IMG/VR virus record: IMGVR_UViG_3300031134_000001
Location: 160,001-224,000 of that record
Reading direction: 5' to 3' (one strand)
Length of the DNA: 64,000 bases
DNA from: a virus
Lineage: Duplodnaviria; Caudoviricetes
Shown here in pieces: positions 2,648 through 8,410 of the stretch. Below the pieces are notes generated by a model. That model was not told the origin of the DNA. It was given only the letters and a program-made list of their open reading frames with translations, and did not search any database. Each line of letters begins with the position of its first letter. Position 1 is the stretch's first letter. A program made the translations under genes and the position numbers.

Positions 2648-2667
2648 GTCAACAACAAAGGAAAGTA

Positions 2668-3678
2668 ATGCAACTCGATTTGAACGCAACACAAGGCAAG
2701 CGGGTCCATGCGTCGGACAAACGCATGATCAATGCTACCACCGACGTCAACCAACTCGTACCGTTCAAGTACAAGTGGGCGTGGGACATGTATCTGGCAG
2801 CCTGCGAGAACCAGTGGATGCCAACTGAACACGACATGCGTGCTGATGCCGGTCAGTGGCAGTCGAGTGTTGTCAGCCAAGCTGATCGCTGCGCTGTGTC
2901 GCGCGCGCTGTACGCGTCGGTGTTCCAGTACGGTCAAGGCATGGACAGCATCGTCCTGGGCATCTATCGTCACCTTACGGCGCCTGAAGCGCGTCAGTAC
3001 CTGCTGCGTCAAAGCTTCGAAGAAGGTCTGTCCTCGCATGCGTTCTCTCACATCGTAGAAGCGCTGGGTGACATCCCTGAAGATACGATCGACCGTTCGA
3101 TCCGTAAAGACTACCTCGCGCCTTACCTGGCCGTGCTGTCCGATCCGAAGTACAAGACCGGCACGGTCGATACTGACCAAGCGTTGCTGCGCGCCCTCGC
3201 GGTGTACACCGTGACCATGAAAGGGTTGTTCCCGCTCGTGGACATTATCCAAGTGCTGGAACTGGGTCAGCGTGGCAAGATGGCGTCCGTGGCAGCTATG
3301 CACCGTCTGGAACTTCGGGACTTGACGATGCATTGCAATTTCGGTGTCGAAGTCATCAACGCCATCAAGACCGAGAACCCGCATCTCTGGACGCCTGCGC
3401 TGCGCGCTGAGCTGACCAACCTCATCACTCAGGCCGTCGATATCGAAGCGGCGTACATCGGTCAGATCTCGCCAGCAGACGACGCCAAGTACGCGATGTT
3501 CCTGCGCATCGTGGCCAACCGCCGCGCTAACCAAATCGGTCTGGACAACATCTATCCGAATCCTGGCAAGAATCCTTTCCCGTGGATCGGTGAACTGCTG
3601 GGTCTGCGCAAAGATGACGCCGGCTTCGAGGTGCGCGCCATGGAAACCAAAACCACAGAAACCCTGAGCTGGGACTAA
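2668..3678 (+). CDS. ribonucleotide reductase beta-subunit homologue, catalytically degenerate
   Basis: NQLVPFKYKWAW, WMPTE, EARQYLLRQSFEE, RDLTMHCNFG, NPFPW...LSWD match the Pseudomonas/Burkholderiales NrdB type; 4 of 6 metal ligands and both redox Tyr substituted. Confidence 0.9.
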   Translation: MQLDLNATQGKRVHASDKRMINATTDVNQLVPFKYKWAWDMYLAACENQWMPTEHDMRADAGQWQSSVVSQADRCAVSRALYASVFQYGQGMDSIVLGIYRHLTAPEARQYLLRQSFEEGLSSHAFSHIVEALGDIPEDTIDRSIRKDYLAPYLAVLSDPKYKTGTVDTDQALLRALAVYTVTMKGLFPLVDIIQVLELGQRGKMASVAAMHRLELRDLTMHCNFGVEVINAIKTENPHLWTPALRAELTNLITQAVDIEAAYIGQISPADDAKYAMFLRIVANRRANQIGLDNIYPNPGKNPFPWIGELLGLRKDDAGFEVRAMETKTTETLSWD

Positions 3679-3685
3679 TCATTAC

Positions 3686-3713
3686 CCCTAGTCTTTCGAG
3701 GCTAGGGTTTTTT
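3686..3713 (+). terminator. intrinsic terminator
   Basis: CCCTAGTCT-TTCG-AGGCTAGGG followed by T-run. Confidence 0.85.
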
Positions 3714-3721
3714 CTTACGTT

Positions 3722-3742: not shown

Positions 3743-4549
3743 ATGAAAATTTCGAACATCCCGATGATCGTCGCTCTGCTGGCCACTGCCCTGGCTGGCT
3801 GCGGTAATGACCACCCACCCGCACCACAAGCGCAATACCAGCAACCTGTCGTCATCCAGCAAGCCCCAGCCGTTCAGCAAGACAACTCCGGCACCAACAT
3901 GCTCGCCGGCGCCGCCCTGGGCGCAGCTGCTGCCATGGCACTGTCCGATCGCGATCGTCACTACGACAACCGGCCTCGCCATGTCGAGTACGAGAACAAG
4001 ACCACGATCGTCAACAACTACCACGGCCCTAAGCCTGGTGTCGCGGCACCGGTCGCCGCTGCTGCTGTTGCCGCCGCGACACCAGCACGTACGCCGGTTT
4101 CCGATCAACTGGTGAACATGGCCAAAACGACGCCGCCTGTTGTCAAGCCCAGTTATGCTGCGCCGGGCACTGCCAGTCCAGTCCCAGCGCCGTCCCAAGC
4201 CTTCCTGACCGGCAACAAGACTCTGACCGTATCGAATACGCCAGCGGTCAAGTCGTACGCACCAGCAGCCGCTCCGGCGTTGCCTGCACCCAAGCCCATG
4301 TTGGCGTTGCCTGCACCTACCCAGGTCAGCTTGACCAAACCGGCACCGACGGCAATGCAAGTTCCTAAGACTGCACAGAACGCCATCCCGCGTCCATCGA
4401 ACTACAACTACAAACCACTGCAAGCATCGTACACGCCGACCAAGTCGTATTCGTCCAGCTCCTCGTACAAACCGTCCAAGAGCTACAGTAGTTCGAGCAG
4501 CTCGCGCAGCTCCAGCAGTTCGCGTAGTTCGAGTAGTTCCCGTCGTTAA
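3743..4549 (+). CDS. lipoprotein with Pro/Ala-rich linker and Ser/Arg tail
   Basis: Signal peptide with lipobox LAGC; MLAGAALGAAAAMAL Gly-zipper-like segment; SSSSR repeats. Confidence 0.8.
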   Translation: MKISNIPMIVALLATALAGCGNDHPPAPQAQYQQPVVIQQAPAVQQDNSGTNMLAGAALGAAAAMALSDRDRHYDNRPRHVEYENKTTIVNNYHGPKPGVAAPVAAAAVAAATPARTPVSDQLVNMAKTTPPVVKPSYAAPGTASPVPAPSQAFLTGNKTLTVSNTPAVKSYAPAAAPALPAPKPMLALPAPTQVSLTKPAPTAMQVPKTAQNAIPRPSNYNYKPLQASYTPTKSYSSSSSYKPSKSYSSSSSSRSSSSSRSSSSSRR

Positions 4550-7507: not shown

Positions 7508-8410
7508 ATGGCAGCCTACCAGATTCACACGATCCAGATGGCCAACCATCGCAAGTTGAAAGATGGGATGCATCTTCTGGACACGACTGCCAAATCGGGC
7601 GTTCCTGCGTTCGCTCCTGTCTTTTCAAATGTGATGGCTTATAAGGACGGTACGCTGTCTGAAGAAGAATACACCCGTCGCTATTTGGAGAAAATGGCGG
7701 CATCCCAAGTTACTTCCCCGAGTATCTGGGAAGAGCTGTTAGTGCATAAGCAAGTGGCTGTGGCATGTTACTGCACACCAGGCAAGTTCTGCCACCGGCA
7801 TTTGTTTGTGCCGATCATGAAAGAGTATCTGGAAGAACGCGGTCACACGGTTGAACTCATGGGGGAGTTAGGTGGCAAGCAGTATTGCAACCACATCCCA
7901 GAAGCGATCGTATCGATTCCGTTTGAGCGTAAGATCATTCCGTTTTACACACGCGACCATGTGCTGTCGAACCACGCCCCTATCGGCTTTACTGTCAAGG
8001 ACATCCATTTCAAGCATGGTGAGATGTTCCTGATGTACTGCAAGGCTGTGTTGATGGGCGACACGGAAACAGCCAACAAGATCCTGGTCACTGATAACCC
8101 ACAAGCGTGCAAGATGTTAGGCAAGCGCGTTAAGCCGTGGGATGAGCAAAAGTGGTTACTTAAGCGGCGCGGTATCAGTAACCGTTTGTGTTACGAGAAA
8201 GCGGTGCAAAACCCAGAGGTGGATGAATATCTCCTCGGCACCAATAACGATATTTTGGTGGAGGCCAGTCCCTCCGACCGCATCTGGGGTGTGGGTATTG
8301 CTGAGAACGATCCCCGTATCTTTGACGTTAACGAATGGCTGGGACTAAACCTATTGGGTGAGTCCTGGATGTGGGCTCGACGTAAGCGACAAGAAGATGT
8401 TATCTTTTGA
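7508..8410 (+). CDS. DUF488-like domain fused to NADAR domain
   Basis: N-terminal ACYCTPGKFCHRHL; C-terminal YCKAVLMGD, KMLGKRVKPWD, LVEASPSDRIWGVG, WLGLNLLG (NADAR signature). Confidence 0.88.
   Translation: MAAYQIHTIQMANHRKLKDGMHLLDTTAKSGVPAFAPVFSNVMAYKDGTLSEEEYTRRYLEKMAASQVTSPSIWEELLVHKQVAVACYCTPGKFCHRHLFVPIMKEYLEERGHTVELMGELGGKQYCNHIPEAIVSIPFERKIIPFYTRDHVLSNHAPIGFTVKDIHFKHGEMFLMYCKAVLMGDTETANKILVTDNPQACKMLGKRVKPWDEQKWLLKRRGISNRLCYEKAVQNPEVDEYLLGTNNDILVEASPSDRIWGVGIAENDPRIFDVNEWLGLNLLGESWMWARRKRQEDVIF

Follow-up and report, generated by a model that had tools for sequence, protein, structure and literature searches.

A predicted non-catalytic homologue of the ribonucleotide reductase small subunit, maintained by purifying selection in large phages

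The supply of DNA precursors has its bottleneck in ribonucleotide reductase (RNR), a classic drug target. The window – the whole 64,000-nucleotide stretch of phage DNA analysed here, positions 160,001 to 224,000 of IMG/VR record IMGVR_UViG_3300031134_000001 – contains a gene for a homologue of the RNR small subunit (R2, or NrdB) from which most of the metal ligands and the tyrosines of the radical path are missing, and the question that it raises is what such a protein is kept for. A preliminary description, made from the sequence alone, proposed a pseudo-enzyme that decoys or regulates the large subunit (R1) of either the host or the phage, or else a repurposed scaffold.

Family membership and catalytic residues

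The gene and the sites at which it departs from active R2 are as follows:

2658..2665, + strand: Shine-Dalgarno-like AAGGAAAG, read from the sequence, ending 2 nt before the ATG
2668..3678, + strand: R2 (NrdB) homologue with loss of the metal site and the radical residue, an uninterrupted ORF of 336 aa
2929..2931, + strand: ligand 1, Asp/Glu replaced by Y88 (alignments)
3022..3045, + strand: EGLSSHAF, with ligand 2 kept as E119, the ligand 3 His replaced by S122 and the radical Tyr by F126 (alignments)
3220..3222, + strand: ligand 4, Glu replaced by K185, invariant in 13/13 clade members
3322..3333, + strand: LTMH, with the ligand 5 Glu replaced by L219 and ligand 6 kept as H222 (alignments)

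The AGGA core of AAGGAAAG lies 5 nt 5' of the ATG. The protein is a member of the ferritin-like family of RNR small chains, scoring above both curated cut-offs: it matches PF00268 over the whole model (E 2e-46, 159 bits against a cut-off of 33.6) and scores 337 bits with NCBIfam NF005550, which models NrdB of the betaproteobacterial/Pseudomonas/Chlamydia type. The cut-off of that model is 309 bits, and a true NrdB of the family reaches 682, about twice the score of the window protein. It is already annotated by JGI as NrdB. The closest solved structures are the class Ic protein 6Y2N (E 7e-77) and Chlamydia trachomatis R2c, 1SYY (E 5e-70); identity is 47-49% to betaproteobacterial and other cellular NrdB and 36-39% to R2c. 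An AF2 model computed from an alignment of eight clade members has an R2 fold with a confidently predicted helical core, and superposes on Chlamydia NrdB with a TM score of 0.73-0.77. PADLOC finds no defence-family match.

DNA of this phage occurs in phyllosphere, straw, wastewater and food-production metagenomes, the phyllosphere sample possibly being the source of the record. The sequencing-run searches list no RNA sample as a holder of the gene; a 163-nt contig identical to positions 2692-2852, from one run labelled RNA-Seq, is probably DNA.

Residues were read from alignments with betaproteobacterial NrdB and Chlamydia R2c, with extraction against a Methylotenera reference. Only two of the six metal ligands are kept (E119 and H222), so that where class Ia has D/E/H/E/E/H the window protein has Y88/E119/S122/K185/L219/H222; in addition the radical Tyr is F126, the relay Tyr of the tail (equivalent to E. 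coli Y356) is T327, and a cognate NrdA is absent. The tail reads ...FEVRAMETKTTETLSWD and residues 300-336 include no Tyr at all. About 13 residues are deleted after helix C relative to cellular NrdB, while NPFPW (302-306) and the terminal TLSWD are retained. The residue changes listed in the preliminary description all appear in these alignments: the first Asp ligand is gone, EEAIH has become EEGLS, HAY has become HAF, LEGIF has become MKGLF, RDESMH has become RDLTMH, and the EY of the tail has become ET; the conserved NPFPW and LSWD that it noted are likewise present. Since the nearest relative (P0001, 96% identical) and others of only 42-53% identity have the same losses, the pattern is not one of chance or sequencing error.

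Class Ic R2 likewise carries Phe in place of the radical Tyr, and it is to this class that the closest solved structures belong, so that F126 is not diagnostic alone; as read from the alignments, the decisive losses are those of the four ligands and the relay Tyr. Assignment to class Ic fails, for although the Phe is present, four of the E/E/H/E/E/H ligands are lacking, the relay Tyr is gone, and the residue at the radical site varies among relatives. Nor is the protein an R2lox: its ligands are lost, and no R2lox model is among its NCBIfam matches, although these models are weakly present for true NrdB.

Class Ie calls for a closer comparison. R2 proteins of this class lack three carboxylate ligands, have a Lys in the site and can nevertheless be active; they are VPK or QSK variants derived from class Ib, in which both His ligands are kept, the Tyr is converted to DOPA, NrdI is needed, and the genes lie in an nrdFIE operon (PMC11846895). 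The phage protein resembles them in the replacement of carboxylate ligands and in the Lys within the former metal site, but class Ib descent, the full pair of His ligands, the Tyr, NrdI and the nrdFIE operon are all wanting. Its descent is that of NF005550, TIGR04171 (NrdF) is not among its NCBIfam matches, one His and the Tyr are lost, and PF07972 (NrdI) has no match in the genome. The proposal that the protein fits neither class Ic nor class Ie is thus borne out, by loss of ligands and relay Tyr in the one case and by descent, His, Tyr and NrdI in the other.

The class Ie precedent (PMC11846895), together with a Lys that is invariant in the phage proteins as well, is what would speak for an active beta subunit using some unprecedented metal-free chemistry beyond class Ie. 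We regard this as very improbable, as the radical-site residue is F, Q, H or Y among the relatives, the relay Tyr is absent from every one of them with no other Tyr in the tail, the E350 equivalent is variable, the genome encodes neither NrdI nor R1, and descent is from class Ia NF005550 and not from NrdF. With no dinuclear metal cofactor, no radical Tyr and no relay Tyr in the tail, nucleotide reduction is not expected, and on its sequence we exclude catalysis by the window protein with high confidence.

A clade of inactive phage R2 proteins and what it conserves

Relatives were sought in about 5.8 billion proteins and by an exhaustive search of 1.84 billion representatives. Those with the same defects (P0001, P0002, P0003, P0012, P0121, P0123, P0127 and P0270-P0273) belong with the window protein to a well-supported dead R2 clade of 13 sequence clusters. 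In an IQ-TREE reconstruction that includes cellular and viral active R2, the 12 dead sequences used form one clade with support of 99/96 and long branches. All members whose context was inspected come from DNA that looks like phage, and the contigs of several are 270-320 kb long. The best 80 matches among 185,579 cellular species genomes, at 45-48% identity, include no clade member: all have the canonical D-E-H-Y-E-E-H-Y, with one regex mismatch that is probably a mis-hit. The 50,697 cultured phage records contain no clade member, the best match being an ordinary nrdB at 38% identity, and we found no description of a dead phage R2 or of a phage RNR inhibitor in the limited collection of literature searched.

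All clade members have Glu at ligand 2, Lys at 185, a lost relay Tyr and a Lys directly after the relay position, and the ligand 1 position varies (Y/N/G/S/D/V/K). The basal pair, P0121 and P0273, still reads D/G-E-R-Y-K-E-H, and losses accumulate in the later branches, P0127 and P0270 for example reading EEALV...MKG...RDQQAQ. What the basal members retain suggests a stepwise decay that began with the change of Glu to Lys and of the tail, and the history of the clade looks, from these sequences, like gradual erosion following an early inactivating change. K185, opposite E119, probably substitutes for the charge of the lost metals and would stabilise the helix bundle.

Erosion of the active site has not been accompanied by decay of the gene. 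The reading frame is intact in 13/13 clusters, and dN/dS is 0.056 (dS 0.32) for the window gene against the closely related contig L005, whose DNA is 93% identical, and 0.12 for another pair (L020 against L022). The dN/dS comparison across homologues that had been suggested as a check therefore indicates purifying selection, and the frameshifts and neutral decay that were to count against the pseudo-enzyme are contradicted. The twelve amino-acid substitutions relative to P0001 tell a similar story: one (S122P) falls at a former ligand position, and position 122 is thus evidently free to vary; a second (G89A) adjoins Y88; a third (M325T) belongs to the tail segment under relaxed constraint; and both the N-terminal block and the final 11 residues, described below, are free of substitutions. 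A decaying pseudogene or annotation artefact might be suspected from the lost catalytic residues and the long branches, and yet it is scarcely credible given the intact frames, the dN/dS values of 0.06-0.12, the good ribosome binding site, and a genomic position kept across deeply diverged phages. The claim of a pseudo-enzyme, with cofactor site and radical path lost and the protein under purifying selection (dN/dS 0.06), holds.

What remains constrained was mapped by setting nine lineages of the clade against a varied set of fifteen active R2, and three segments are central to the argument:

2698..2823, + strand: N-terminal block, residues 11-52 (KRVxAxDKRMIN..TDVNQLVPFKYKWAW..YL..C.N.WMP), from invariant columns of the clade alignment
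3610..3648, + strand: relay-bearing part of the tail, residues 315-327 (KE.NFFE..V.EY in active R2), with constraint lost and the Tyr replaced by T327
3643..3675, + strand: extreme C-terminus, residues 326-336 (ETKTTETLSWD), conserved; the R1-binding end in active R2

Nowhere is the dead clade better conserved than in residues 11-52, where it agrees exactly with the consensus of cellular NrdB; across residues 21-40, mean conservation is 0.94 in the dead clade and 0.75 in the active set. Other blocks that are kept include residues 100-119, the RD at 217-218, ENP.LW, ANRRA.QIGL, NPFPW and E.K...TL.W. Relaxed in the dead clade are the ligand positions, their second-sphere neighbours and the KE.NFFE..V.EY segment of the tail, with positions 315, 316, 318-321, 324 and 327 conserved in active R2 and variable here. 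The two sets each conserve a different residue at just two positions, N being replaced by G at 93 and E by K at 185. At the C-terminus the clade conserves E326, K328, T332, L333 and W335. Retention of a conserved tail, as had been proposed, is thus upheld by the alignment, in which E.K...TL.W is constrained across the clade. That the C-terminus of R2 binds R1 is established (e.g. PMC2900304), and we consider it well supported by these patterns of conservation that the clade represents a dead enzyme kept for binding.

We note in passing that most NrdB of the NF005550 subfamily (P0005-P0357) begin with M-L-S-[F/W]-[D/E]-[D/E]-E, after which comes a variable linker. This motif resembles the C-terminal R1-binding L-S-W-[D/E] and, strictly defined, is present in 183/225. 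It is retained by most of the dead clade; the window protein (2668-2706) has MQLDLNAT and a very short lead.

Nucleotide genes of the phage and its relatives

The source record is 271,026 bp long with direct terminal repeats, and is thus complete. It has exactly one PF00268 match, the dead R2, and the search for an intact nrdB elsewhere in the genome, which the preliminary description had called for, accordingly yields none. The complete genome also has no PF02867 (R1 barrel) and no R1 of any class, no NrdD, NrdI (PF07972), glutaredoxin or thioredoxin, and no dCMP deaminase. A phage-encoded R1 as the target, one of the two possibilities originally raised, is therefore excluded, and with neither an R1 nor another R2 in the genome the partner can only be that of the host. 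The same holds for relatives: the three complete records with direct terminal repeats and a clade member (G000, which is the present genome, and G001 and G003, the other two being 272 kb and 323 kb) each encode a single dead R2 and are without PF02867, a second R2 or NrdD; a further record, 83% complete, likewise combines one dead R2 with the lack of an R1.

The nucleotide genes of the phage are confined to the dTMP branch, namely ThyA, DHFR and Tmk. The gene order is Tmk, ThyA, a few small ORFs and the dead R2, followed further on by a NADAR-DUF488 gene, a Y16D-like gene and DHFR, and this synteny is kept across phages whose proteins are only 42-53% identical. The thymidylate synthase gene is placed as follows:

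699-1769, + strand: thymidylate synthase, 356 aa, matching the 266-position Pfam model end to end

It has some 70-90 extra residues as insertions, and the synthase is conserved in related phages. Directly after the dead R2, at 3743-4549 (+ strand), is a gene whose 268-aa product has a lipoprotein-type signal (…LAGC), no Pfam match and a long Ala/Pro/Ser-rich tail with Ser repeats; it is conserved in relatives at 41-95% identity. Close relatives and a straw-metagenome contig have an extra 363 nt after the dead R2 (a 106-aa ORF, L005:11013-11333) that is missing from this genome at 3676-3721. At 7508-8410 (+ strand) is a 300-aa fusion of DUF488-N3a to NADAR, which in all related phages is beside the T4 Y16D-like gene and DHFR. 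For a chimallin-like ORF at 22603-24288, neither solved-structure sequences nor cultured phages give a match, and no tubulin was found with PF00091.

The constancy of the Tmk/ThyA/DHFR neighbourhood suggests one alternative to an action on RNR, in which the R2 fold or its termini would serve as a scaffold that binds ThyA, Tmk, DHFR or a component of the replication compartment. The shift of the tail consensus away from that of cellular NrdB, with invariant K328 and T332, is consistent with a new partner, and reuse of an RNR subunit has a precedent in the M45/UL45-type R1 of betaherpesviruses, which has lost catalysis and is kept for a known non-RNR role. The M45/UL45 proteins and the phage protein are alike in being non-catalytic viral RNR subunits that have been retained; the former, however, are large subunits of animal viruses, while the phage protein is a small subunit that looks built for contact with RNR. 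Gene neighbourhood alone is weak evidence, there is no candidate partner, and both NPFPW and the terminal L-x-W are as in R1-binding NrdB; we regard a scaffold role as unlikely.

Related phages carry several other kinds of R2. Two jumbo-phage records (G005 and G006) have an intact R2 of the same family with nrdA directly upstream, and the NrdA of G005, a 272-kb phage (L114:1139-4045), is about 80% identical to Comamonadaceae NrdA, which points to recent capture from a Burkholderiales host. Two complete genomes with direct terminal repeats (G007, contig L015, 249 kb; and G011, contig L103, 312 kb) encode an intact-looking R2 with all ligands and both Tyr, and have no R1 anywhere. Phages that carry R2 only and need the R1 of the host therefore exist, and on their gene content G007 and G011 would be phage counterparts of the R2-only poxviruses; R2-only phages have been noted previously (PMC3653736).

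Degenerate R2 genes also occur outside the clade. The sole RNR-like gene of a complete 269-kb phage (G009) is a much more degenerate R2 with an N-terminal extension of about 110 aa, and about 40 of 98 representative subfamily clusters are without at least one ligand, a count based on a FastTree analysis only and on some uncertain alignments. Further ligand-deficient lineages include P0134, P0140, P0146, P0161, P0182 and others, as well as L110 (G009) and L111 (G010); the consensus of those from metagenomes still ends in L-x-W, and P0134, P0182 and P0122 are found on short contigs of phage-like look with small unknown ORFs. Separately, a large group of viral R2 on IMG/VR contigs (L030-L087) reads E-E-H-[V/I]-E-E-H. 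The ligands of this group resemble those of class Ic, but Val or Ile occupies the radical site in place of Phe; the relay Tyr is still there, and the tail ends ...LEDDF.

Nine cultured Pseudomonas putida jumbo phages encode an unannotated protein between nrdA and nrdB, exemplified by:

L088:5923-6771 (Pseudomonas phage vB_PpuM-Voja-6, PP496442): degenerate R2 protein gp22 of 282 aa, with a PF00268 match below cut-off

Over its first ~144 residues it is an N-terminal half of R2, 35% identical to the window protein (E 2e-17); its last residues read ...DTLTWD, and the active nrdB next to it is without the conserved N-terminal block. To judge by these sequences, the two proteins may form a beta-prime/beta pair in a culturable system.

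Host ribonucleotide reductase as a candidate target

We put at about 0.5 the probability that the window protein is a folded, non-catalytic beta-prime that engages the class Ia RNR of the host, most simply through the beta-tail site on the host alpha subunit. The gene would descend from a betaproteobacterial-type class Ia NrdB, with selection acting on the fold, the N-terminal block and the last ~10 residues, which are the R1-docking part of active R2. The protein would form a beta-like dimer whose tails fill the beta-tail site on host NrdA, and this phage dimer would compete with host NrdB, modulating de novo dNTP synthesis of the host during infection; the biochemical default of such competition would be a throttling of host dNTP synthesis. 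Docking on host NrdA is the simplest reading because the R1-docking end is conserved and the phage owns no R1, and from that same conserved end we infer binding of R1 by the tail.

An experimental parallel is available from the poxviruses. Vaccinia F4, an R2, binds host R1 through its C-terminus, and poxvirus R2 works with host R1 (PMC2900304); the mutant F4 Y300F, altered at the relay Tyr but with its R1-binding tail unchanged, acts through host R1 as a dominant negative (Gammon et al. 2010, PMC2900304). Relay Tyr gone and tail kept is the natural pattern of the phage protein, and by this analogy competition with the active beta subunit would be the default. The cases differ in that the natural poxvirus R2 is active, its dead form having been engineered in the laboratory and being detrimental to the virus, whereas the phage protein is naturally dead and selected, and is without the metal site too. 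The decoy of R1 that was proposed at the outset is plausible by the residues kept and lost. A complex prediction that paired the core (270-930) of a Delftia-type NrdA with the C-terminal 51 residues of the window protein, run without controls, scored 0.11 against a mark of 0.32 and is taken neither for nor against docking.

Several observations count against the simplest form of this reading. The strongest conservation is in the N-terminal block and not in the tail, and the change of EYQxGG in the cellular consensus to ExKTxx means that the tail could have been retuned to another partner. A phage without RNR should moreover need the dNTP synthesis of its host, and pure inhibition therefore looks costly; whether the effect would be inhibition, tethering or activation is a matter of speculation. 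A wider form of the proposal, in which a dead R2 effector would dock on host NrdA, NrdB or both and control dNTP synthesis, whether by slowing it down or by tying it to the dTMP module or the replication compartment, seems to us possible but less likely than not.

A rival reading follows yeast Rnr4, the beta-prime of the textbook Rnr2-Rnr4 pair, which has lost ligands and catalysis, is under selection and has an R1-binding tail. Like Rnr4, the window protein is an R2 homologue that has lost metal ligands and catalysis and is maintained by selection; unlike it, there is no active R2 in its genome. Active Rnr2 is encoded alongside Rnr4, while the phage encodes no active beta or alpha, and the origins of the two are independent. 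By analogy with Rnr4, the dead subunit might heterodimerise with host NrdB and support or stabilise the enzyme, or spread a scarce radical-bearing beta subunit, the conserved tail then anchoring a second alpha. Residues 11-52 and 100-119 follow the cellular NrdB consensus despite more than 50% divergence elsewhere, as expected if they touch a conserved host protein, although this match may reflect constraints of the fold only. The phage needs dNTPs and has no RNR, the active host-like R2 of related R2-only phages suggests selection for beta supply, and the P. putida phages have a degenerate R2 fragment, with N-terminal block and tail, between nrdA and nrdB. Against this, no active beta is encoded in the genomes of the clade, and R2 dimers are stable, so that freshly made phage protein would mostly pair with itself. 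Such heterodimerisation seems to us unlikely. Because the phage is without an RNR and has the thymidylate branch only, both it and tethering or a new partner are kept as serious rivals to docking on host NrdA.

At the level of function, the closest comparisons are yeast Rnr4 and the F4 Y300F mutant engineered in vaccinia, the phage protein being, by this comparison, the one directed at a host enzyme. Cellular NF005550 NrdB has in common with it the fold, the sequence family, the N-terminal block, NPFPW and the terminal L-S-W-D, and differs in possessing the four ligands, the radical Tyr, the relay Tyr and a cognate alpha that the phage protein is without.

The dead R2 passes curated NrdB cut-offs, and annotation pipelines therefore label these phages RNR-positive, with the result that RNR is overcounted among the 'auxiliary metabolic genes' of phages. 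If the proposed action on host RNR is true, the protein would be a natural probe or inhibitor scaffold for RNR of the Pseudomonas/Burkholderiales type and a viral, host-directed counterpart of yeast Rnr4, and would show how large RNR-less phages handle the nucleotide supply of their hosts. The other ligand-deficient R2 lineages of metagenomes would then represent a broad and unrecognised class of phage RNR modulators.
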